64,000 nt of DNA from Klebsiella phage fENko-Kae01. This document shows, in pieces, positions 2,513 through 21,760 of this stretch. A model generated the notes under the pieces. The model was given only the letters and a program-made list of their open reading frames with translations. It was not told the DNA's origin and did no database searches. The stretch is from sequence record OR228459.1; one strand, given 5' to 3'. Position 1 is the stretch's first letter. Each line of letters begins with the position of its first letter. Made by a program: the position numbers and the translations under genes.

Positions 2513-3055
2513 ATGAAAATTTATAAAGATTGGAAAGTATATAAACCTTTAATTACTGAGCAAAATAAAAGTAATGTAGAAGCCGGGGTTATGTTTTTGT
2601 GTGATTCCGATGGTATTGACTGGTATGAATTGAGTAAAGAACTTGAACAACCACAACATCAAAATAATTATTTTATTTTAGTAGATGTTAAAACTAATAT
2701 GGTTAAATCATATTCTAAAGGATTCAAACCTTGGTATTTTGCTCCAATTTCTGCTCATTTTTGTATAACTGATAGTGCACCTGTTGATTTTGAAGAAAAT
2801 TACATACATTATCGTTTAGATAAAAATAAATTTGTTCCAGATAATTCATTAAAGATTGATAGTCTTAAATATTACATTGATGAAGAACTAATGTGGGCTT
2901 CGTCGCAAATTAGTTCACTTCAAGATATTGAAGAGTTTGGAACACCAACCAAAGAAGAACAAGAACGTTTGCTTGCATTGCGTAAGTACCGCTTTACATT
3001 AACTCGTGTAGTACCGGAAGATAACCCAGATATTGACCTTCCAGATCGTCCTTAA
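2513..3055 (+). CDS. hypothetical protein
   Basis: 180-aa ORF with AAGGA-type RBS context. Confidence 0.5.
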   Translation: MKIYKDWKVYKPLITEQNKSNVEAGVMFLCDSDGIDWYELSKELEQPQHQNNYFILVDVKTNMVKSYSKGFKPWYFAPISAHFCITDSAPVDFEENYIHYRLDKNKFVPDNSLKIDSLKYYIDEELMWASSQISSLQDIEEFGTPTKEEQERLLALRKYRFTLTRVVPEDNPDIDLPDRP

Positions 3056-3063
3056 AAAAAATC

Positions 3064-3094
3064 TTGGGACAAAAAAAGGATCATGTGATATAAT
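3064..3094 (+). promoter_or_regulatory. promoter, TTGGGACA-N12-TGTGATATAAT family (copy 1)
   Basis: ttgggaca at 3064-3071 and extended -10 tgtgatataat at 3084-3094. Confidence 0.6.
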
Positions 3095-3097
3095 AGA

Positions 3098-3134
3098 AGC
3101 ACGATGAGCAATGACGCTCACGTGCTTTTTTTTA
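3098..3134 (+). terminator. intrinsic terminator hairpin overlapping the promoter start site
   Basis: agcacg-a-tgagc [aatgac] gctca-cgtgct followed by T8. Confidence 0.6.
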
Positions 3135-3151
3135 TAAATGGAGAAAACAAC

Positions 3152-3448
3152 ATGGCTAAGAAAACTGAAAACAAAGTAGAAATCAAAGACCTAAACGACG
3201 AACAACGTAAGCGTCTTGGTGCTGGCCTAAACAATGCTGTAGTCCAACTAACCTATATGGAAGATACTAAAGCTGCTTATTCTGATTTCATCGATTCACT
3301 AGCTGATGAACTTGGTCTAGATGCATCAACCATCAAACAAGCGGCAACCCGTATGCATAAAGGTGATTTCTTCGATAAAGTCCGTAAACAAGATGAAATC
3401 GAAACTATCCTTCAAATTACTGGTAACCTACCAGAAGATGACGAGTAA
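3152..3448 (+). CDS. small dsDNA-binding protein, T4 DsbA-like (tentative)
   Basis: 98 aa from MAKK with GGAG 9 nt upstream. Basic/acidic helical protein about the size of T4 dsbA. The 3104 start in the ORF track lies inside the terminator hairpin. Confidence 0.4.
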   Translation: MAKKTENKVEIKDLNDEQRKRLGAGLNNAVVQLTYMEDTKAAYSDFIDSLADELGLDASTIKQAATRMHKGDFFDKVRKQDEIETILQITGNLPEDDE

Positions 3449-3458
3449 TATGTCATAT

Positions 3459-3484
3459 AGCCTCCTAGTATGGAGGCTTTTTAA
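3459..3484 (+). terminator. intrinsic terminator
   Basis: agcctcc-tagtatg-ggaggct followed by TTTTT. Confidence 0.7.
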
Positions 3485-3513
3485 TTGAAGTATGTTTATT
3501 ATAAGGAAATAAG

Positions 3514-6500
3514 ATGTATATAGATGGATTTATGGAACGTAAACGAACTGGTGATATTCTACATGTAGCAGAACGTATTAACGGTCGTCGTGTACTTCGT
3601 CAACTAGACCCTGTATATGAATACTATGTTGAATCACCAACGGGAACATTTAAAACCATTCACGGTACAATGGCTGAGAAATTAACCTTTGCTAACCAAC
3701 GTGATATGCGTAGTTCCCTTGAACTACATCAAGGTCGTCGAACCTACGAATCTGACTGTAACGTTACCTTTAAAACTCTTGCACAAGAGTACATGGGTAA
3801 AGGTTCACCAGATTTGAATATGGTATTCTTCGATATTGAAACCGACTTCCATAAGAAGCTCGGATATGCACCACCAAGTAACCCATTTAACCGTGTTACT
3901 GCAATTTCCCTTTATCAGAACTGGACAGGTAAAGATTATGTACTAACCTTACCACCTGATGATATGGAATTAGTTGAAGCACAGGATATCGTTAACCGAT
4001 TGAATGAAGAAACTAATGATCCTAACAGTGTAGTACTTCTTTACACTGAAGAAACAGAAATGTTCAATGACTTCTTTGATTTGATTGATGATGCTGATGT
4101 ACTTTCTGGCTGGAATAGTGAGTTCTTCGATATTCCATACATGGTTAACCGTACTGCAAAAATCTTCAATGCTGCAACTACGGCTCGTTGGTGTTTGTGG
4201 AATAAAAAACCTGTATCTCGTGAAGCAGATATGTTTGGTAAAACAATTGTCACTTATGACTTAATCGGTCGTGTTCACCTAGATTATCTAGCGTTGTATA
4301 AGAAACACGCAGGTCAAGTCGAACAATCGTACAAACTAGACTTCATCGCAGAGAAAGTTACAAAAGAAAATAAAGTAGCGTATGAAGGTTCTCTTGACAA
4401 ATTGTACAGAGAGGATTATATTACATTCCTACGTTATTCCAAACAGGATAGCATTCTTCTTAAAAAGATTGATGAGAAGTTAGACTACATCAACCTACAC
4501 AACCGACTAGCACACAAAGAATGTGTACTAATCAGTACTACAATGGGTTCTGTAGCACTAATTGACACAGCAATCATAAACCTTGCACACTCAAGAGGTG
4601 AAGTGGTATTTGATAAGAAGCCACAAGAAGATGATGTTACTGAACAAGATGATCGTTATGATTACCTCATTGAAGATGAGGATGATGGTTCAGATAATGA
4701 ACCAGTATCGGCAAAAGCTGCTGGTGCATGGGTACAAGATCCAGTACTAGGACTTGTAGACTACTTAGGATGTACTGACTTTAACTCACTATATCCAACA
4801 GTACTACGTACATTAGGCATGAGTACTGAATGTATTCTTGGACAAATTCGCCAAGATTATACAGATGCACATCTTGCAAAACGTGTAGAAGAACAACGTA
4901 TGCGTTCTAAGTCTAAGAAGTTCGAACCTAACTGGACAGAAGCATGGCACGGTCTATTTGCAAGTGTTGAATTCACGATGGTTCGTGAGCGTTCAGAGCA
5001 AACACTAATTGTTGATTTGGAAGATGGCACTAGTTTCAACGTGACAGGTGCAGAGCTTCATGATATCATTTATGCTGAAGACAGTACTATTGTACTTTCT
5101 GCTAATGGTACGTTGTTCGATAAAACTAAATCTGGGGTCATTCCAGAGATTCTAACTCAATGGTATTCTGAGCGTAAGTCTCAACAGAAGATGGTAATCG
5201 ACTTCAAACACATTTATACTGATGGTTGGGAAATGCCAGAGGACGCTATCGATAAGATAGAGGCTGCTATGGCTCGCTACAAGCGTTCTGAGACGATGTA
5301 TAGAACGAACCTACACGAAGACGATCCAGTTTATTTGATTCGTCAGGCGTTGGTACAGAGCGATTATGAGCAGGTTGGAAAGCTAATCACAGAGAATGGT
5401 CTTCTACTAGAAGATGGTCGTATCAAATGTACTAAAGAAGAGAAAAAATATTGTAAAACGCAATCTGCGTTCTGGAAGCAGAACCAACAGATTCGTAAGA
5501 TTCTTCTCAACTCTCTTTATGGTGCATTGCTCAACAAAGGTTCTAGATTCTTTGATAAACGTTTAGGTCAATCTGTAACCTTAACTGGTCGTAGTATGAC
5601 TAAACATATGGCATCCCGTATCAACGAAATTTGTACTGGTGAATACAATCACCAAGGCGGCGTTGTAATTTACGGCGACACCGACTCCGTTTACTTTAGT
5701 GTAGCTCACTACATGAAAGAACAGGGTCTACCATTTGATTTAACAAAAGAAGAAGTTGTTGATCTATATGTGAAAATTGGTGATGAAGTTGGTGCATCTT
5801 TCCCTTCCTTTATGGATGAATATTTCAATACTGGTATCGAGAAAGGTAAAATCGTAGGTGCAGATTTGGAAATGGTAGGCTCTCGTGGTCTATTCTTGAA
5901 GAAAAAGCGTTATGCGATCCTCAAATATTGGGAAGATGGATTCCGTAAAGACGAAGATGGATCACCGGGCGAAATCAAGGCTATGGGATTAGAAATCAAA
6001 CGTTCTGATACACCAAAGTATATCCAAGATTTCCTACAAGAAACTCTTATCGCATTGCTAGTTGGCGAAGGAGAAGAAGAACTACGTAATAGAGTTCGTG
6101 CATTCAAAACTATTTTCCGTGATAAGCCTATTCAGCAGAAAGGGCAACCACGTACAGTTAAAAACTATTCGAATCTAGAAGAAGAATATAAGAAAACTGG
6201 TAAATTATCAGTATCGCATGTTCTAGCTGCGATTCAATGGAACAAACTACGTGATATATATGAAGATCAATCAGTTCCAGAAGCAACTGACGGTACTAAA
6301 GTTATCGTTTGTAAGTTAAAGCCAAACCCAATGGGAATAAAAGCTGTCGGCTACCCAATTGATTGTGCTGAATACTTACCAGAATGGTTCTTGGAGCTAC
6401 CTTTTGATGAAGATGAGATGGAAAAAGCCGTTTTGACTAAGAAACTAGGTAATATTTTCGGTATTCTAAACATGGATATCGCAATCAACGAGAAGAGTAC

Positions 6501-6534
6501 ACTAGTAATGGATAGTGGATTCTTCGAATGGTAA
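3514..6534 (+). CDS. DNA polymerase, family B (T4 gp43-like)
   Basis: Exo I FFDIETD, motif A DFNSLYPT, KILLNSLYG, motif C YGDTDS. 1006 aa. Confidence 0.95.
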   Translation: MYIDGFMERKRTGDILHVAERINGRRVLRQLDPVYEYYVESPTGTFKTIHGTMAEKLTFANQRDMRSSLELHQGRRTYESDCNVTFKTLAQEYMGKGSPDLNMVFFDIETDFHKKLGYAPPSNPFNRVTAISLYQNWTGKDYVLTLPPDDMELVEAQDIVNRLNEETNDPNSVVLLYTEETEMFNDFFDLIDDADVLSGWNSEFFDIPYMVNRTAKIFNAATTARWCLWNKKPVSREADMFGKTIVTYDLIGRVHLDYLALYKKHAGQVEQSYKLDFIAEKVTKENKVAYEGSLDKLYREDYITFLRYSKQDSILLKKIDEKLDYINLHNRLAHKECVLISTTMGSVALIDTAIINLAHSRGEVVFDKKPQEDDVTEQDDRYDYLIEDEDDGSDNEPVSAKAAGAWVQDPVLGLVDYLGCTDFNSLYPTVLRTLGMSTECILGQIRQDYTDAHLAKRVEEQRMRSKSKKFEPNWTEAWHGLFASVEFTMVRERSEQTLIVDLEDGTSFNVTGAELHDIIYAEDSTIVLSANGTLFDKTKSGVIPEILTQWYSERKSQQKMVIDFKHIYTDGWEMPEDAIDKIEAAMARYKRSETMYRTNLHEDDPVYLIRQALVQSDYEQVGKLITENGLLLEDGRIKCTKEEKKYCKTQSAFWKQNQQIRKILLNSLYGALLNKGSRFFDKRLGQSVTLTGRSMTKHMASRINEICTGEYNHQGGVVIYGDTDSVYFSVAHYMKEQGLPFDLTKEEVVDLYVKIGDEVGASFPSFMDEYFNTGIEKGKIVGADLEMVGSRGLFLKKKRYAILKYWEDGFRKDEDGSPGEIKAMGLEIKRSDTPKYIQDFLQETLIALLVGEGEEELRNRVRAFKTIFRDKPIQQKGQPRTVKNYSNLEEEYKKTGKLSVSHVLAAIQWNKLRDIYEDQSVPEATDGTKVIVCKLKPNPMGIKAVGYPIDCAEYLPEWFLELPFDEDEMEKAVLTKKLGNIFGILNMDIAINEKSTLVMDSGFFEW

Positions 6535-7118
6535 TAGGAACAATAATGTCAGGAATTTTTCAACGCATTGGGGAGGCAATTGCCTCCCAAGGTAAAATCA
6601 CACTAGTTGCAGCACTAAATGATGAAGAAGCAAACATTCTCATGGGTGCTGGGTTCAAAAAAGCTGGTACAATGGATCTAAATGGTTCTTTAGTTGACCT
6701 TTACGAAGTAAAAGTACAACAAATAATCAACACTACTCAACCATATCAAATTGCACGTGATATTTTTGATAAGCCTCGGAAATATGAACAACAATGGCCT
6801 GAAAACTATCGCATGTACTCTATCGGCACTGGTACTGGTCAAGCTGCTCATTTAAATTTCAAAGGAAACACCACTTCTTTGATGGATGCTGCATATGATC
6901 CACTAAGTATTTTAGAAGATTATTTCTTCCCAAGAAAAGAGGAAGAAACTCATAGAGAATTCAAAATTGAAGTTGATGATATGGATGAAGAATCCAAAAA
7001 TGATTTCATTCAAAAAGTTAAAGATGAATTCCATAAATCAGGTCGCACATATTGCGATGATAGCTGGACTTCTTATAATGTAAATTACAGTGGCAACACT
7101 GACCACCGTAACTGGTAA
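6528..7118 (+). CDS. hypothetical protein
   Basis: 196-aa ORF overlapping the polymerase stop. Alternative start at 6546 with AGGA RBS. Confidence 0.5.
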   Translation: MVIGTIMSGIFQRIGEAIASQGKITLVAALNDEEANILMGAGFKKAGTMDLNGSLVDLYEVKVQQIINTTQPYQIARDIFDKPRKYEQQWPENYRMYSIGTGTGQAAHLNFKGNTTSLMDAAYDPLSILEDYFFPRKEEETHREFKIEVDDMDEESKNDFIQKVKDEFHKSGRTYCDDSWTSYNVNYSGNTDHRNW

Positions 7119-7134
7119 TAAAAATAAAAAAAAG

Positions 7135-7165
7135 TTGGGACGTACCGAGATTTATGTGATATAAT
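7135..7165 (+). promoter_or_regulatory. promoter, TTGGGAC...TGTGATATAAT family (copy 2)
   Basis: ttgggac at 7135-7141 and tgtgatataat at 7155-7165. Confidence 0.6.
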
Positions 7166-7176
7166 AGGTACGTCAC

Positions 7177-7205
7177 AACGTTAAAAATAAGAAACGTTAA
7201 CAAAA
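7177..7205 (+). promoter_or_regulatory. 5' leader direct repeat AACGTTAA...AACGTTAACAAA
   Basis: aacgttaa at 7177-7184 and again at 7193-7200 in the leader of the clamp gene. The same 12-mer AACGTTAACAAA occurs in the gp32 leader at 18000. Confidence 0.35.
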
Positions 7206-7224
7206 TGGAATTGGAGATTTAAAA

Positions 7225-7956
7225 ATGGATTTACGCAACGTTCTACGCGACCTAGTTAGCACTACTACTGGTATGGATTTCTCTTGTATCGCAGTTTCAC
7301 GAGAAGACCGTGGAGAAGGTAATCGTGTTTACATGGAAGCATATACAGATGATAAGACTCTAATCATGAGAGCCGAAACTAAAGAAGACGTACCAGAAGT
7401 TGAAGGTCGTTTTGGTCTAGGTAACCTCGGAATGCTTCAAGGTCTTATGAATCTAAAAACCTACAACTCCGAATCTGCTAAGATCGCAGTCAATGCAGCA
7501 AACGGTGTTGTTAAAAGTCTAGCATTTACATCTGATGATGCAAGTACTAACTTTATTGTTCAATCGGAAAAATTTATTCCTAACCAACCACGCTTTACTC
7601 CACAACCATATGATGTACAGGTTACACCTAGTGCTGCAAAGGTTGGCGAACTAAAGTCTTTCTCTAGTGTATTCAAATCTTTTTCTGCTTTAGTTACTCC
7701 TTATACTGAAGGTGATACACTATACTTCCACGTTGGTGAGAAGAATAAATCAAACCACTCCGGTGCATTAGCTTTCACCAAAACTGATGGTGAACTAAAA
7801 CTAGGATATGGTTATGCGATTGATCGTCTTCTTCAAGCACTAAATCGTGTGTCTAATGCTGAAGAAATTACCCTTGGTATTACAAAAACTGGTATGCTAA
7901 ACGTTACTGTTGACACTGGCATTACTGTGTTTAAATTCTTCATCCAAGGTAACTAA
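7225..7956 (+). CDS. sliding clamp (T4 gp45-like), tentative
   Basis: 243 aa, GGAG RBS, directly downstream of the polymerase. Size and a GNLGMLQGLMNL segment resemble gp45. Confidence 0.5.
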   Translation: MDLRNVLRDLVSTTTGMDFSCIAVSREDRGEGNRVYMEAYTDDKTLIMRAETKEDVPEVEGRFGLGNLGMLQGLMNLKTYNSESAKIAVNAANGVVKSLAFTSDDASTNFIVQSEKFIPNQPRFTPQPYDVQVTPSAAKVGELKSFSSVFKSFSALVTPYTEGDTLYFHVGEKNKSNHSGALAFTKTDGELKLGYGYAIDRLLQALNRVSNAEEITLGITKTGMLNVTVDTGITVFKFFIQGN

Positions 7957-8004
7957 TAAATCAAGGGGAACATAGTTCCCCTATTTTCGATGGAGATGTA
8001 ACAA

Positions 8005-9582
8005 ATGAGTACTCCACGCTTTATTGCTGATACCCACTTGGGTCACCGCAATATCTATAAGTATAGAAAAGTATTCGATAGTACTAAACATAATGACTTG
8101 TACTTTATTCGTATCCTGCAAGAAACTTGCAAGAAAAGAGATACTATGTTTTTCTTGGGTGATATTTGTTTTGACAAACAATATCTAGAAATTATAAAAG
8201 AACTTCCGGGACAAAAAATTCTTATTCCGGGAAATCACTGTATTTCACCCGATACTGAAGTATTAACACAAAACGGCTGGAAAGTAGCAGAAACTATCAC
8301 GTTTAGCGATATTATTGCTAGCACCAACTTACAAACAAACATTGTTTCATATGATTCACCAATCAATGTTGCTAGACATGAAAACATGAAAATGGTGAAA
8401 GTTTCAGGAAGTTATATTGATGAATTTGTTTCTAATACACATAATATGGTATATGAAAATACACTAACGTCTGTGTCATCATTATACGGTAAACATGATA
8501 GTAATAGTTTCAAATATTCATGTATGAATTCAAATACTGGAATTAATGAGAGTGATGATTGGATTTATTTGTTACAGTTTGTAATTGCAGATGGATGTTT
8601 GGTTAAGGGTGAAACCCCCAACAAAAAGAGAATTCAATTCAAATTGGCAAAACCTAAAAAAATTGAAAAGTTAAAATCAATTTTAGAAAAATTATCCATA
8701 TCATATACTATTCAAGAATGTAAAAAATCCAAATCAAACATTCTAACGCCATACTATATTAGAATTTATGGTGATGATGCAAGAACTATATGGGATAAAT
8801 TATCGGGTATAAAAACTCCACCTGACGAATGGAAATTTATGAACAAGTCACAAATGACGGTTTGGATAAATGCAATACATGATTCTGATGGTTATAAAGA
8901 AATTAATAATAGTTATTTAACAACTATAGATAAAAATTTTGTAAATATATTCCAACATGCTTGTGTGACGAATAATATAGCTTGTAAATATAGTGAATTA
9001 GTACCAACGAGTGGGTTTCGCAATGGTAAATTACAATATAAAATTGTATTCAAAACCATTGATGAGTATGTAAATAGTACAAAACGTGTTTACATAGATA
9101 TTACCGATATCATGTCAGATGTGGTTTCTATTCAAACCATCAATGGAACATTGATTACTCGCCGCAACGGAAAGGTTTCAATAACTGGTAATTGTACTGA
9201 ATATATTCCAATGAAAGAACTAGTAGATGTTTATGATGAAGTACATGCACTACTAAAATATAAAGAATTCTGGCTTTCTCATGCACCAATTGCTGATGTT
9301 GAATTACGTGGTAAAAGAAATATTCATGGACATGTTCATGCACAGTCTGTTCCTGATATTAAATATCTAAACACTTCTGTTGATAGTGAATTTATGAGAT
9401 TTCTACCTAGAACACTTCATGAAGTTCGTCAAGCATTTGAAACAATGGAACAACTCGGTTCACATTATGGTGGATTAGAAGACCGCGATGATGCATTAGA
9501 AGTTATCATGTCAAATCCTATTTCAAAAGCGGCTTACGTGTGGTCTAAGAAAGAAGCAGAAAAGATTATGGTTTTTCAATAA
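8005..9582 (+). CDS. calcineurin-like metallophosphoesterase interrupted by an intein
   Basis: N-extein has IADTHLGH, FLGDICFD, IPGNH. C-extein has LSHAPI and GHVHAQ. A 318-aa insertion separates them. Confidence 0.7.
   Translation: MSTPRFIADTHLGHRNIYKYRKVFDSTKHNDLYFIRILQETCKKRDTMFFLGDICFDKQYLEIIKELPGQKILIPGNHCISPDTEVLTQNGWKVAETITFSDIIASTNLQTNIVSYDSPINVARHENMKMVKVSGSYIDEFVSNTHNMVYENTLTSVSSLYGKHDSNSFKYSCMNSNTGINESDDWIYLLQFVIADGCLVKGETPNKKRIQFKLAKPKKIEKLKSILEKLSISYTIQECKKSKSNILTPYYIRIYGDDARTIWDKLSGIKTPPDEWKFMNKSQMTVWINAIHDSDGYKEINNSYLTTIDKNFVNIFQHACVTNNIACKYSELVPTSGFRNGKLQYKIVFKTIDEYVNSTKRVYIDITDIMSDVVSIQTINGTLITRRNGKVSITGNCTEYIPMKELVDVYDEVHALLKYKEFWLSHAPIADVELRGKRNIHGHVHAQSVPDIKYLNTSVDSEFMRFLPRTLHEVRQAFETMEQLGSHYGGLEDRDDALEVIMSNPISKAAYVWSKKEAEKIMVFQ
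8239..9192 (+). mobile_element. intein with LAGLIDADG homing endonuclease domain (Cys1 ... GN/Cys+1)
   Basis: Begins CISPDTEVLT (block A). LAGLIDADG-like LLQFVIADGCL and WINAIHDSDGYK. Ends VSITGN with C+1. Confidence 0.65.
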
Positions 9583-9592
9583 GGATATTAAA

Positions 9593-9796
9593 ATGCCATT
9601 ATATACATACAAATGTCAAAATGAAGAATGTGAACATTCTGAAGATAAAATTGTCAAAATTTCAAATCGTGACGATGAGCGGAAATGTCCATCATGTGAA
9701 GATGGATTATTAAAGCGTGAAGAATTTACGGCTGGTGATAAAGGTGCATCATTCCGTTTCAAAGGAAACTGGTTCAATACTACAGGGAGATACTAA
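9593..9796 (+). CDS. FmdB-family zinc-ribbon protein
   Basis: YTYKCQNEECEH ... CPSCED gives a CxxC...CxxC pattern. Confidence 0.55.
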   Translation: MPLYTYKCQNEECEHSEDKIVKISNRDDERKCPSCEDGLLKREEFTAGDKGASFRFKGNWFNTTGRY

Positions 9797-10086
9797 TGAG
9801 TACTTTAAAAATGATTAATGACTACGTTCTAGTGGAACTAGTTGAAAACCACACTACCACTGCTGGTGGTATTATTCTAACCAACGTTGAGCCACCTTGC
9901 ATTGGTCGTGTTGTTTCAGTTGGCCCCGGACGTATCCTAAATAACGGTGAAAGGGCTGAACACAACATTGAAGTTGGTGAAGAAATTGTATTTGGTAAAT
10001 CTTCCTTGAATCAGCCTCTAGAACACGAAAAAGTAACATATTATGTTATGAAAATTGATGAGGTATTTGGTAAAAGAAATGGCTAA
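9796..10086 (+). CDS. co-chaperonin GroES / gp31 analogue (copy 1)
   Basis: YVLVEL..TTAGGIILT..GRVVSVGPG..VGEEIVF matches the Cpn10 pattern. 96 aa. Confidence 0.75.
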   Translation: MSTLKMINDYVLVELVENHTTTAGGIILTNVEPPCIGRVVSVGPGRILNNGERAEHNIEVGEEIVFGKSSLNQPLEHEKVTYYVMKIDEVFGKRNG

Positions 10087-10780
10087 GAAGTTACCATTCT
10101 GGATGATCCCCGCTCATTGGGGATTATCTGGTAAAGCAAAAGAAATTGCTAAGATTAACTACTTTTATGAAGGGTATGAAGCTGATGTACGATGTGCACC
10201 ACTTGTGTACTTAACTGAGTATGAAGTTGATAAAGCAATTGTTGATATTGAAAAGAAATATAACAAACTTTCTGAATTAGAATATGATTTGAAGATGCTC
10301 GACATTGAGTTGAAGCATAAACGTATTACTGAACATGAACGTGATGAACAAGCACTCGACAAGCGTTTCCAACATAATGCAATTCGCGAAAAGGAGTATG
10401 ATGCTGCTAAAGTTGAATTAATGGAAGACGGTGATGAGAAGCGTTTAGCTGCAATTGAATACGCATTTAAATATCATGAGATTACTGAACGAGAGTACAG
10501 TAAAGAACTCTTTACCATGCGTAAAGAACCTTGGATGGATTTTGATGTAGAATTCAATCAAGAAACTAATAAGGTTGAATTCATATTTGATTACAATGAA
10601 TACTTTTGGAAGAAATTAAAGGCCGAAGGTCATCCGGGTAATGATGAATATGAAATCATTGAGAACTTTATTAAAGATTGGGGAAGGAAGTTAGACGATG
10701 AAGAGTACACTGATGATGAAGATGTGAACTTAACACGTATGACTGATGAGTTACCTGATAATATCAAATTTTACAAATAA
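10055..10780 (+). CDS. hypothetical acidic protein
   Basis: ORF overlapping the GroES end. Alternative start at 10079 (ATGGCTAA overlap). Confidence 0.5.
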   Translation: MMRYLVKEMAKKLPFWMIPAHWGLSGKAKEIAKINYFYEGYEADVRCAPLVYLTEYEVDKAIVDIEKKYNKLSELEYDLKMLDIELKHKRITEHERDEQALDKRFQHNAIREKEYDAAKVELMEDGDEKRLAAIEYAFKYHEITEREYSKELFTMRKEPWMDFDVEFNQETNKVEFIFDYNEYFWKKLKAEGHPGNDEYEIIENFIKDWGRKLDDEEYTDDEDVNLTRMTDELPDNIKFYK

Positions 10781-10811
10781 AAAAAAGGAGAACGAAAGTT
10801 CTCCTTTTTTA
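10779..10811. terminator. bidirectional intrinsic terminator
   Basis: A-run, aggagaac-gaaa-gttctcct, T-run. Serves + genes from the left and - genes from the right. Confidence 0.75.
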
Positions 10812-10822
10812 TTAAGTTTTTA

Positions 10823-11476
10823 TTAACCAAGTAGTGCTGGGATAGATTTGTAAATCTTGATAGCAAAGTTACCAGCGGCAGCAGCAGCGGAACCTTTAAG
10901 AATTACTTCTTTACCAGTTTTATCCATTAGTGGAACACCAGCTAGATCATCTAGAAGTAGACGACCTTCGTCAATTGCAGTAGATGGCACACCTTGGAAA
11001 GAAATTGAATCACGGTCAAACACGTCTGCACGTTCAACTAGGAAAGTGATAACATCAGCAGAAGCGATGTTAGCAGCAGCATCAACACCATCAACTACGT
11101 TTTTGAGACCATTAGCAGCAACGCCTTTAGCGATATCAGAAGTAGCGATAATAACTGCACGTTGCTGAACAACATCAACGATGCGTTTAACGTTAGTTTG
11201 AGCAGCATATGCTTCAGTGTAGTCTTCTTCAACGGTTGCTTCAACGAATTCAGAACCGTCAACGCGAACAACACCTTTGTCATTTAGGAACTCAACGATT
11301 TCGTCTTTGTTCTGGGTGTTTAGAAAATGTTGTAGACCAACATAAGAACATACTGCACCAGTTACTACTAGAGCAATGTCACCAGTAGTATCGATTGCAA
11401 TAGTTGCTAGTGCGTTTTTACCTTGGAAATAACCAAGTACGCTATCTTGGGAGAAACCATTAATACGTTCTAACAT
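10823..11476 (-). CDS. hypothetical protein, paralogue A of an antisense pair
   Basis: Start at ATG 11476 with AAGGAGA RBS. ITFLVERADV aligns with ITFMIERQDV in the upstream gene. Ala/Val/Gly-rich, no TM segment. Confidence 0.55.
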   Translation of the reverse strand: MLERINGFSQDSVLGYFQGKNALATIAIDTTGDIALVVTGAVCSYVGLQHFLNTQNKDEIVEFLNDKGVVRVDGSEFVEATVEEDYTEAYAAQTNVKRIVDVVQQRAVIIATSDIAKGVAANGLKNVVDGVDAAANIASADVITFLVERADVFDRDSISFQGVPSTAIDEGRLLLDDLAGVPLMDKTGKEVILKGSAAAAAGNFAIKIYKSIPALLG

Positions 11477-11489
11477 ATCATTCTCCTTA

Positions 11490-12053
11490 TTATAGTAGTA
11501 CTGGAAGTGCAGCAAATACTTTAATAGCTACTGGAAGTGCAGCAGCAGGAGTACCATCTTTCTTACGGAAAGCACCAGCTTGACCTAGAGCAGCAGATAG
11601 TTCAGCACATGGCTCAACAGGAACTGGATAGTTAGAACCCGGACGAACTGCTTGTGCAGTTAGAACATCTTGACGCTCGATCATAAAAGTAATACCGAAA
11701 GAATCAGCAGTTAGAGTTCCAGATTTACCGAAAGCAATTACGTTACCTTCAATTTTCTCAAAGTCAGCAGCGGTTGGATCAACACTTCCTTTAGCTAGCA
11801 TAGAAGTAGCAACTTCAACAGAACGTTGTGCTAGAATTTGTGCAATCATAAATTGGTTGTACTCAGCAGCAGATAGTGCAGTTTGTGCAGCATTATCACC
11901 AATTTCAGTACCATCAGGTAGTACAGCAGTTTCGCCAATTTCTACATCAGCAGGTAGAGAAACAACAACAGTAACGAAACCGTTATTACCACCCCAATAT
12001 TCGCGACTGTTAGCTGACATGCCATAGTTGCGATCAAAAGAATTAAGACTCAT
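11490..12053 (-). CDS. hypothetical protein, paralogue B of an antisense pair
   Basis: Start at ATG 12053 with AAGGAGA RBS. Similar to 10823-11476. Confidence 0.55.
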   Translation of the reverse strand: MSLNSFDRNYGMSANSREYWGGNNGFVTVVVSLPADVEIGETAVLPDGTEIGDNAAQTALSAAEYNQFMIAQILAQRSVEVATSMLAKGSVDPTAADFEKIEGNVIAFGKSGTLTADSFGITFMIERQDVLTAQAVRPGSNYPVPVEPCAELSAALGQAGAFRKKDGTPAAALPVAIKVFAALPVLL

Positions 12054-12177
12054 AAAAATCTCCTTGTCTAATTTGTTGCAGGATTGTCCCTGCTTAAAGT
12101 TATTTATCAATTCTGAACGTTCATCTTTCGATAAATGGATAAAATTGATTTGTTTCTGTGATATTATTTATCAAATC

Positions 12178-12207
12178 TTGGGACAAACCAGAAAAATGTG
12201 CTATAAT
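12178..12207 (+). promoter_or_regulatory. promoter, TTGGGACA...TGTGCTATAAT family (copy 3)
   Basis: ttgggaca at 12178-12185 and tgtgctataat at 12197-12207. Confidence 0.6.
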
Positions 12208-12220
12208 AGAGGGGAAATAA

Positions 12221-13227
<1,007 letters not shown>

Positions 13228-13228
<1 letters not shown>

Positions 13229-13737
13229 TGGCAGTACTAAACAAATTAACAGATTATTCTTTTATCTTAGAAACTGATGCAGGTGAACAACTAGGTATTA
13301 TCGTTGATTACAGTGCAGGAACAACCGAACGTACTGGACTTGAGCTTTTTAATAATGATGGGGTATATCCTTTTAATTCTTTAAATGAACTTGAAGAAAT
13401 GATTGGTGAACCATTCAAAGTTAAAGAGAAAGAACAGACTGACATTACTACCAGTACTAAAGAAATTGATGGTTATCCTGTAAACGACACTGATACTATT
13501 ATTGGTGTTGCAGTTAACGAAGAAACAGGTTATCCAGTGTTTAGAAAAAGTGAACGTTCTAAGAAACTATTCTATCCGGGCTGGTGGGTTGTACAAACTG
13601 CTGAAGGTGATCATCTAGCACGTTTAACTCTAAGTGTTGACATTTACAATGAGCGTAAAGATACTGGCAAGATTTTCGGGCCATTTAAAACGTATATGGA
13701 ATGTAACTATCAGTTAAAATCTCTATCACAAAAATAA
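13228..13737 (+). CDS. hypothetical protein
   Basis: 169-aa ORF, ATGA-coupled to rnh. Confidence 0.5.
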
Positions 13738-13760
13738 GGATGCCTCGGCATCCTTATTTA
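13733..13760 (+). terminator. intrinsic terminator
   Basis: aaggatgcc-tcg-ggcatcctt followed by attta. Confidence 0.6.
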
Positions 13761-13817
13761 GTTTCACATGTAATAGTTGCATTTGAAACTATTCTTTAAG
13801 TACAAAGAATAATCTTT

Positions 13818-13859: not shown

Positions 13860-16490
<2,631 letters not shown>

Positions 16491-20806: not shown

Positions 20807-21760
20807 ATGCCTAAACGAAAAACACACGAAGAATTCTTACAAGAAAGTATTGCCATTTATGGTGATCAATTCCAATACTGTTCAATATACAAAAACACGG
20901 ATACACCAATGGATTTTATATGTAAATTTCATGGTGAATTTTCACAAATTCCAAAAATACACTTACGTGGTAATGGTTGTCCAAAATGTACTGGTAATGT
21001 TAAACTAACAACAAACGAGTTTATACGGATATCGAATATGATTCATGGTTGTGAATATGACTATACAAAAACTCAATATAGAAACCGAGATACTGATGTA
21101 GTTATAACATGTTCAAAACATGGGGATTTTAATATGAATCCACGTGTACATATGAACGGTGGAAAATGCACACTTTGTACTGGACGTAAAAAATTAACAA
21201 CTGAATCCTTTATTGAAAAATCCAAACAAATTCATGGTGATGGTGTATATTCATATGATAAAGTTGTATATGGTAAAAACAATAAAGAAAAAGTTGAGAT
21301 TATTTGTAATAAGCATGGTTCGTTTTTACAACGACCTAATGATCACTTATCTGGTAAGGGTTGTAAACGATGCTCCGATGAATCGGTTGTATCTAAGGCA
21401 GTATCAGAAATTACCAATTGGTTAACTGAAAATGATATTGTTCATGTTCGTGAATATATATTTGACAACTGTTCTAATATTAATAAGTTGAGATTTGATT
21501 TTTATATACCTCATTTGAATATGTGCATTGAATATGATGGAATACAACATTTCAAATCATTTGAACATTGGGGTGGTGATGAAAAATTAAAACAAATACA
21601 AATAAATGATGAAATAAAAAATTTATACTGCATTGATAATGGTATACAACTTGTGCGTATTAAGTACACGCAAAACCATATAAAATGCATTGAAAAGGTA
21701 ATAAAAAAATATGATCAAGATGGAAGAATTTCTACAGAAAGTGGTTGTAAACGATACTGA
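20807..21760 (+). CDS. putative free-standing homing-type endonuclease: three Zn-ribbon repeats plus a C-terminal Vsr/DUF559-like PD-(D/E)xK domain
   Basis: Three repeats of about 60 aa with pattern T.EEFI...IHG..Y.Y...KHG.F...P..H..G.GCxxC. The C-terminus has RFDFYIP...CIEYDGIQH...GIQLVRI. Confidence 0.5.
   Translation: MPKRKTHEEFLQESIAIYGDQFQYCSIYKNTDTPMDFICKFHGEFSQIPKIHLRGNGCPKCTGNVKLTTNEFIRISNMIHGCEYDYTKTQYRNRDTDVVITCSKHGDFNMNPRVHMNGGKCTLCTGRKKLTTESFIEKSKQIHGDGVYSYDKVVYGKNNKEKVEIICNKHGSFLQRPNDHLSGKGCKRCSDESVVSKAVSEITNWLTENDIVHVREYIFDNCSNINKLRFDFYIPHLNMCIEYDGIQHFKSFEHWGGDEKLKQIQINDEIKNLYCIDNGIQLVRIKYTQNHIKCIEKVIKKYDQDGRISTESGCKRY

Follow-up and report, generated by a model that had tools for sequence, protein, structure and literature searches.

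The stretch of DNA examined here, 64,000 nucleotides from the Klebsiella jumbo phage fENko-Kae01 (GenBank OR228459.1; hereafter the window), contains an open reading frame (ORF) annotated as "hypothetical protein ENKO_296" (100% identity), which encodes a metallophosphoesterase interrupted by an insert of exactly 318 residues. Our reading of the sequence, to which we give a probability of about 85%, is that this insert, which lies between His78 of the phosphoesterase and the Cys that follows it, is an intein of class 1 containing a LAGLIDADG homing endonuclease. Intein-free orthologues, conserved splice residues, a predicted Hint plus LAGLIDADG fold, profile matches and same-site homologues all support the intein reading. 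The intein of ENKO_296 is real and was previously unannotated: the words intein, homing, LAGLIDADG, phosphoesterase and endonuclease are absent from the genome paper (PMC11218385). It is also an ordinary member of a large family, one of whose members has been tested experimentally.

By its motifs and profile matches, the host of the insert is a calcineurin-like metallophosphoesterase of about 207 aa that belongs to phrog_547. The spliced sequence matched phrog_547, "phosphoesterase", with E = 7e-50, and the Pfam model Metallophos (PF00149) scored 25.2 bits on the ORF, above its cut-off of 21.5. All five motifs of the calcineurin-like set (DxH, GDxxD, GNH, H and GHxH) were found, with Cys replacing the D/E that follows GNH. 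A preliminary description of this DNA had reported D-x-H, GDxxD and GNH ahead of the insert and SHAP and GHVH behind it, and each of these lies in the ORF translation where it had been placed.

The limits of the insert were set by comparison with phages that lack it. The Salmonella phages Munch, 7t3, SE_PL and PHA46, whose nucleotide identity with the window's first 25 kb is 97.7-99.5%, carry at the same place a 207-aa phosphoesterase gene without the insert, reading GNH/CTEY (here and below, a slash marks an insertion point or an intein end). Alignment with the Munch protein was free of mismatches through H78 and restarted at C397, so that exactly 318 residues were without a counterpart, and the predicted spliced product differed from the Munch protein by a single residue. 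At the DNA level, the insertion is clean, in frame and 954 bp long: the empty site is GGAAATCAC-TGTACTGAA, to which the window adds 954 bases, and the empty-site sequence of Munch and PHA46 reads ...CCGGGAAATCAC/TGTACTGAATATATTCC... Comparing PHA46 and SE_PL with the window by blastn gave break points identical to those of the Munch comparison. The insert begins with CISPDTEVLT (TGT at 8239) and finishes with VSITGN at 9192, followed by Cys. Because TGTA occurs at both ends, the boundary is uncertain by 4 nt when judged from DNA alone. The boundaries do not depend on a by-eye reading of motifs, since they follow from the alignment with the intein-free Munch orthologue. This comparison, which the preliminary description had proposed for defining the junction, yielded H78/C and an exact 318-aa insert, so that the coordinates it had given, 8239-9192 after GNH, turn out to be accurate to the base. 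Exact identity of the spliced product with a database protein was considered and rejected: P0159 was listed at 100% without being string-identical, and the Munch protein is one residue off. The features of the locus are collected in Table 1.

Table 1. Features of the interrupted phosphoesterase gene and its surroundings (window coordinates)
Feature	Position	Strand	Remarks
ORF, metallophosphoesterase plus insert	8005..9582	+	525 aa, uninterrupted reading frame
N-extein, aa 1-78	8005..8238	+	100% identity with Munch residues 1-78; H78 is the -1 residue
Motif I, D9-T-H11	8029-8037	+	
Motif II, G52-D-I-C-F-D	8158-8175	+	
Motif III, G76-N-H78	8230-8238	+	
Intein, 318 aa, Cys1 to Asn318	8239..9192	+	Absent precisely from intein-free alleles
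Splicing block A, CISPDTEVLT	8239..8268	+	Cys1, predicted N-terminal nucleophile
Splicing block B core, S65-N-T-H68 (T/SxxH)	8431..8442	+	Aligns to VSPNH of AceL NrdHF intein
LAGLIDADG motif 1, LLQFVIADGCL, intein residues 111-121	8569..8601	+	Predicted catalytic Asp118
LAGLIDADG motif 2, WINAIHDSDGYK, intein residues 209-220	8863..8898	+	Predicted catalytic Asp217-Gly218
Splicing block F region, VVSIQTINGTLITRRNGK	9121..9174	+	Ser297 at F:4 equivalent; without His
Splicing block G, VSITGN	9175..9192	+	Thr316 (G:5), Gly317 (G:6), Asn318 (G:7, predicted to cyclise)
C-extein, aa 397-525 plus stop codon	9193..9582	+	One change relative to Munch, V512E
Cys+1 nucleophile (predicted), TGT	9193-9195	+	First C-extein codon
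Motif IV, H426 in SHAP	9277-9288	+	
Motif V, G442-H-V-H445	9328-9339	+	
Patch of window-specific nucleotide differences flanking the intein	8064..11775		PHA46/SE_PL comparison

The first codon after the insert specifies a Cys that stands at the canonical D/E position of the active site and would at the same time supply the +1 nucleophile required by the intein. The preliminary description had counted this GNH-C junction among its reasons for having splicing and enzyme activity tested. The junction has an ordinary explanation: it is native to the intein-free alleles and common among relatives of the enzyme. Of the 120 best-scoring homologues of the spliced sequence (P0159-P0278), all of them too short to accommodate an intein, 84 have Cys after GNH and 34 have Asp, the two states being interspersed along the similarity ranking. 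By this comparison, GNH-C is the enzyme's own junction and not a product of the intein, and because both the intein-free Munch protein and most of these homologues read GNH-C, the spliced product would be an ordinary member of phrog_547.

We then assessed the conservation of the putative splicing residues in an alignment of 87 relatives of the intein, which had been chosen to begin with Cys. Cys1 is by construction present in all 87, and some other relatives apparently begin with Ser. T10, H68 and N318 are invariant, and T6, G13, D118, D217, G218, R308, G311 and G317 are at least 90% conserved. In block B, the residue at position 65 is Ser in 46 relatives and Thr in 39; residue 70 (B:12) is Met in the window intein and Trp in none of the relatives. 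The block F region retains T304 (77/87), R308 (81/87) and G311 (84/87). Its F:4-equivalent position, equated with residue 297 by pattern alignment, is Cys in 49, Ala in 17, Gly in 12 and Ser in 8 relatives. In block G, position 316 is Thr in 61 and Ser in 21, and the +1 residue is Cys in 62, Ser in 22 and Thr in three. These patterns bear out the features that the preliminary description had picked out by eye: a Hint block A at CISPDTEV, with its invariant T10 and Cys1; two LAGLIDADG motifs, LLQFVIADGCL and WINAIHDSDGYK, each with a conserved acidic residue; and an ending in ITGN, with Gly as penultimate residue and Cys at +1, that leaves a GNH-C junction.

The predicted structure agrees with these assignments. 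An AlphaFold2 model of the intein, built with the family alignment, had a mean predicted local distance difference test score (pLDDT) of 96.5 and a predicted template modelling (TM) score of 0.93. In a Foldseek search of the PDB, the top match was PI-SceI (E = 9e-13, TM 0.61 on the query); the endonuclease half also matched I-DmoI (E of about 6e-8, TM 0.62-0.65 on the target) and I-SceI, and further matches were PI-TkoII and the AceL NrdHF intein. Like the window intein, PI-SceI (the yeast VMA1 intein; 1vde, 1ef0, 1lws) is a Hint domain with an inserted LAGLIDADG endonuclease; it differs in its sequence (11-12% identity), its length (about 454 aa), an additional DNA-recognition region, a penultimate His, its host protein and its domain of life. 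In the model, the first LAGLIDADG motif falls on a helix (residues 106-118) followed by a strand, and the second on a helix comprising residues 203-215. The endonuclease looks intact, because each of the two helices terminates in a conserved acidic residue, D118 and D217 respectively. Pfam LAGLIDADG_3 (PF14528) matched the ORF above its cut-off (E = 6e-8 to 2e-7). The N-terminal 75 residues of the intein, block B included, matched the AceL NrdHF split intein (6zgq) with E = 0.007. Among solved Hint domains it is the nearest in sequence, and it likewise comes from phage or metagenome DNA; unlike the window intein, it is class 3 (with an internal Cys nucleophile), naturally split and devoid of an endonuclease. 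The profile of the whole family matched several solved inteins, namely AceL NrdHF (8e-14), Spl DnaX (1e-6), PI-MtuI (1e-4) and a DnaE intein (3e-4), with E-values ranging to 5e-4, and its extein columns matched SbcD, Mre11, MJ0936 and calcineurin.

An exhaustive profile-free search returned 1601 cluster representatives at E<=1e-3, of which 110 reached E<=1e-30; with clusters defined at 50% identity, the family comprises at least 1,600 of them. The relatives that were traced to their source came from phage genomes or metagenomic contigs. In about 120 representatives the insertion site could be parsed: it lies after GNHD or GNHE in 59, directly after GNH in 36, at motif V (GHxH) in three and elsewhere in a few, so that about 95 of the roughly 120 follow GNH or GNH plus D/E. 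The window intein is in the register directly after GNH. Among 82 aligned relatives, Pfam recognised Metallophos in 57, Metallophos_2 in 22 and Intein_splicing (PF14890) in merely seven, which explains why the inteins of this family escape annotation. Family members were also observed at motif V (P0011, P0148, P0153 and P0156, GHVH/C...) and in unrelated exteins (P0138, P0140 and P0152, ...NPGH/C...ITQN/SH, with a penultimate Gln). Because members occupy motif V and unrelated exteins, the lineage has jumped between sites.

Same-site homologues were found in 83 records of Rheinheimera Barba phages, at 34-35% identity and with the end VTGN/C. One of them (L002, 3001-4470, 489 aa) reads GNH/CIAEDTEV...VVVTGN/CS, and such genes are labelled "putative serine/threonine protein phosphatase" or "hypothetical protein". 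Closest to the window intein are metagenomic relatives, with 51-62% identity. The Barba and metagenomic inteins (P0002, P0003, P0013; L008) share with it an orthologous or homologous extein, the GNH/C site, the length and the ...TGN/C end; they differ in sequence, identities being 34-62%, and their source records carry no intein annotation. P0003 lies on a 76-kb metagenomic contig of a jumbo phage (L008, Logan SRR21707705) that is syntenic with the window. Its phosphoesterase intein region (4830-6395) is preceded by genes for a DNA polymerase and a 243-aa protein and followed by a Zn ribbon and Cpn10, with TerL, which carries a LAGLIDADG intein, further on (11332 onward). Identity between the window and this contig is 59.6% for the intein, 69% and 59.5% for the two exteins, 76% for the DNA polymerase and 63% for Cpn10.

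The preliminary description had also seen a reason for doubt in the penultimate residue, Gly317, which is not the usual His. This residue is Gly in 85 of the 87 relatives, Gln in one and His in one, and nearly all full-length sequences among the 150 best representatives, taken unfiltered, end in T/S-G-N followed by C, S or T. Moreover, the last 35 aligned columns are devoid of any His in 56 of 82 relatives, the window intein included. Judged from these alignments, a His-less C-terminal module is the norm of the family and not a defect of the window copy. R308, K312 and T316 are candidate substitutes for the missing His because they are conserved. Among the relatives, the residue at the F:4 equivalent showed no correlation with the register of insertion.

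Experimental support for Gly at this position comes from the intein of Bethlehem RDF, a calcineurin-like metallophosphoesterase of a mycobacteriophage (gp51 in PMC5050341; gp52, "phosphoesterase", in AY500153), studied by Kelley et al. 2016 (PMC5050341). The parental intein, with Gly316, spliced completely, whereas precursor of the G316H variant built up and splicing was slow; toxicity of the endonuclease meant that an R157W mutant had to be used, and the intein was treated as class 1 (PMC5050341). The Bethlehem gene that we retrieved reads ...EGNHD/CSWTN...VWCLRVPNGRFFIEDGGKIHLTGN/SRARD, with G at residue 316 and R at 157, in agreement with the published numbering. Direct BLASTP between the two inteins was not significant (E = 0.035), and kinship was detected by profile comparison alone: the family profile aligned to the Bethlehem RDF intein over 296 columns with an hhalign probability of 99.6% and E = 1.5e-24. 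Both inteins interrupt motif III of a phage calcineurin-like metallophosphoesterase, are about 317 aa long, start with Cys1, contain a LAGLIDADG endonuclease and end in T-G-N, the homology extending over their full length. The Bethlehem intein differs in sitting one residue later (GNHD/C versus GNH/C), in having Ser instead of Cys at +1 and Cys instead of Ser at the F:4 equivalent, and in its host, an actinobacteriophage RDF as opposed to the enzyme of a jumbo enterobacterial phage. A non-His penultimate residue with the C-terminal Asn kept, as in the window, is also known from the Chlamydomonas eugametos ClpP intein (Gly) and from archaeal inteins (refs 51-53 in PMC5050341). Inteins without the penultimate His respond variously when it is restored, and in some a block F His compensates (PMC5050341); unlike the latter, the window intein has no block F His either.

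From these residues, splicing can be pictured as follows. The 525-aa translation product would be a precursor with the intein dividing its active site. Cys1, assisted by block B His68, would convert the H78-C1 peptide bond into a thioester by an N-S acyl shift, Cys+1 would receive the N-extein by trans-thioesterification, and cyclisation of Asn318 to a succinimide would free the intein. A final S-to-N shift would give the 207-aa enzyme, reading ...PGNH-CTEY... as in the intein-free relatives; the active site would not be whole until splicing is complete. The C-terminal chemistry would proceed without a penultimate or block F His, as is normal for the T-G-N family. In co-infections, the endonuclease probably cuts intein-free ...GGAAATCAC/TGTACTGAA... 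alleles, and repair would copy the intein together with flanking donor sequence.

Three observations weigh against an active class 1 intein. The Hint and intein models of Pfam and NCBIfam gave no match to ORF 8005-9582; the last 35 residues of the window intein hold no His able to assist Asn cyclisation; and the tested relative, the Bethlehem RDF intein, is only about 17% identical and has Cys where the window has Ser297. Four alternatives were considered.

In one, the intein is a functional post-translational switch that sets when the phosphoesterase becomes active in the course of infection, for instance under redox control exerted by Cys1 and Cys+1. Insertion in a catalytic motif, which should leave the precursor inactive, would suit such a role, and variation of the penultimate residue has been proposed to tune the splicing rate of phage inteins (Kelley et al., PMC5050341). 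In addition, the divergence of the intein resembles that of neighbouring genes in the related metagenomic phage, suggesting long retention. We nevertheless regard conditional splicing as unlikely, given that the closest relatives do well without the intein and that conservation of homing sites is enough to explain insertion in conserved motifs.

We hold it to be quite improbable that the intein is decaying, that is, unable to splice or capable of cleavage only, with the phosphoesterase effectively knocked out. Such decay would account for the lack of a penultimate His, of a block F His and of Asp or Cys at F:4, as well as for the failure of standard intein hidden Markov models on this protein; it could be tolerated if, as is probable, the enzyme is dispensable in a phage with hundreds of accessory genes (PMC11218385). 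However, the 525-codon frame is intact, every invariant residue of the family and both endonuclease aspartates are kept, and the residues that are missing here are missing family-wide. The Bethlehem RDF intein, a remote relative, splices (PMC5050341). At 99.5% identity, the exteins closely match alleles that look functional, and the N-extein has synonymous changes only. We conclude that the intein in fENko-Kae01 is probably splicing-competent.

Another route of splicing, by a class 3-like internal nucleophile or some other variant, is very unlikely. It is suggested by the AceL NrdHF match described above, by the T-x-N end of the window intein, by the consensus of the family (Cys at the F:4 equivalent and Thr at G:5, two of the three WCT residues) and by the Ala1/WCT-type TerL intein of the same phage. 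The class 3 WCT signature consists of Trp at B:12, Cys at F:4 and Thr at G:5 (PMC5050341). When class 3 was tried on the window intein, three of four signature features failed (Cys1, Met70 and Ser297) and only Thr316 fitted. With Cys1 present, Met at B:12 and Ser at the F:4 equivalent, such a route is unlikely, and the Bethlehem RDF relative, as noted, was treated as class 1.

That the insert is no intein at all, rather a native inserted domain or a read-through endonuclease gene, whether intron-borne or free-standing, can be practically dismissed: although Pfam detects LAGLIDADG alone within it, precisely these 318 codons are missing from near-identical orthologues, a Hint fold and the Hint blocks A, B, F and G can be recognised (so that the native domain without Hint blocks envisaged in the preliminary description does not apply), and there are no stops or frame changes. 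When 7800-9800 was scanned with Rfam at E<=1, no group I or group II intron was found, and the only matches were two snoRNA-like ones attributable to chance; an intron or other RNA element was rejected on this result and on the continuous frame.

Guanine plus cytosine (GC) make up 29.8% of the intein DNA, compared with 36.2% across the window, which places the intein within the lowest 2.2% of 954-bp segments. We scored as window-specific those differences at which PHA46 and SE_PL agree with each other. There were none at 3127-8063, 28 at 8064-11775 and none at 11776-13793, against a background of about 99.5% identity. Upstream, the aligned stretch 2880-8242 holds six differences from PHA46, and four of them fall within 175 bp of the insertion site (binomial P = 1.6e-5); these four are synonymous, because the N-extein protein sequences are identical. 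The patch at 8064-11775 may be a donor-derived co-conversion or recombination tract that arrived with the intein. Furthermore, the intein is found in fENko-Kae01 and in a distant relative and is absent from the four closest relatives, near-identical phages; such a sporadic distribution is as expected of a homing element. Together, these sequence comparisons suggest that the intein was probably mobile in recent times.

Not all of the evidence calls for recent homing. Identity to the nearest known relative is 59.6% for the intein and 63-76% for the neighbouring genes, a comparable divergence, and the data would also fit an intein that was inherited vertically over a long time and then lost precisely from the relatives. 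A donor allele was sought with the intein DNA by distant-mode blastn against 50,697 phage records, and nothing was found. A tblastn search for one returned only the Barba phages (35%) and weak matches in inteins of primase/helicase, RNA ligase and thymidylate synthase genes, a scan of IMG/VR gave one locus at 34% identity, and in a search of 5.8 billion proteins the best non-self match was 62% identical; no donor allele came to light in any of these searches.

Two further elements of homing type were seen in the window. TerL, the large terminase, carries an intein of 329 aa with a LAGLIDADG endonuclease (14130-15116, + strand), inside ORF 13872-16490 and after the Walker A sequence ARQMGK; it is probably the "first intein" of the preliminary description. 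This intein has Ala1, ...CEDHLW (Trp B:12), VPCRCLQV (block F Cys) and LIPTHN/TT (Thr G:5), a class 3 WCT signature as judged by eye. Its insertion is precise, PHA46 TerL reading ARQMGK/TTVAAAY, and the GC fraction drops to 0.279 in the TerL intein of the window. At 20807-21760 (+ strand) lies a free-standing HNH homing-endonuclease gene of low GC content, encoding 317 aa (phrog_559, E = 5e-72). In Munch, which lacks it, the flanking genes are separated by just a 45-bp spacer with a terminator. The HNH gene is the third homing-type element within 25 kb that is missing from the closest relatives.

As a result of this analysis, ENKO_296 can be re-annotated as an intein-interrupted metallophosphoesterase, and likewise its Barba and metagenomic homologues. 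The findings leave the current understanding of inteins unchanged and add an enterobacterial jumbo-phage example to the family typified by the mycobacteriophage RDF intein. We put forward only tentatively, as a doubtful reading of the family alignments, that this abundant and mostly unannotated lineage, specialised on motif III in two registers one residue apart, with His-less blocks F and G and Cys, Ala, Gly or Ser in place of Asp at F:4, is a distinct variant, and that GNH-C may be the footprint of, or the precondition for, repeated occupancy by inteins; the suggestion on GNH-C arises because an intein in the GNH/ register splices only with Cys, Ser or Thr at that position. To protein engineers, the compact C-terminal module that dispenses with His may be of interest. 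The four phages with an empty site (97.7-99.5% identity) offer a natural experiment, in which homing and co-conversion are measurable in mixed infections. For the family, the His-less C-terminus ending in T-G-N is a conserved trait over about 1,600 sequence clusters and not the quirk of a single phage.

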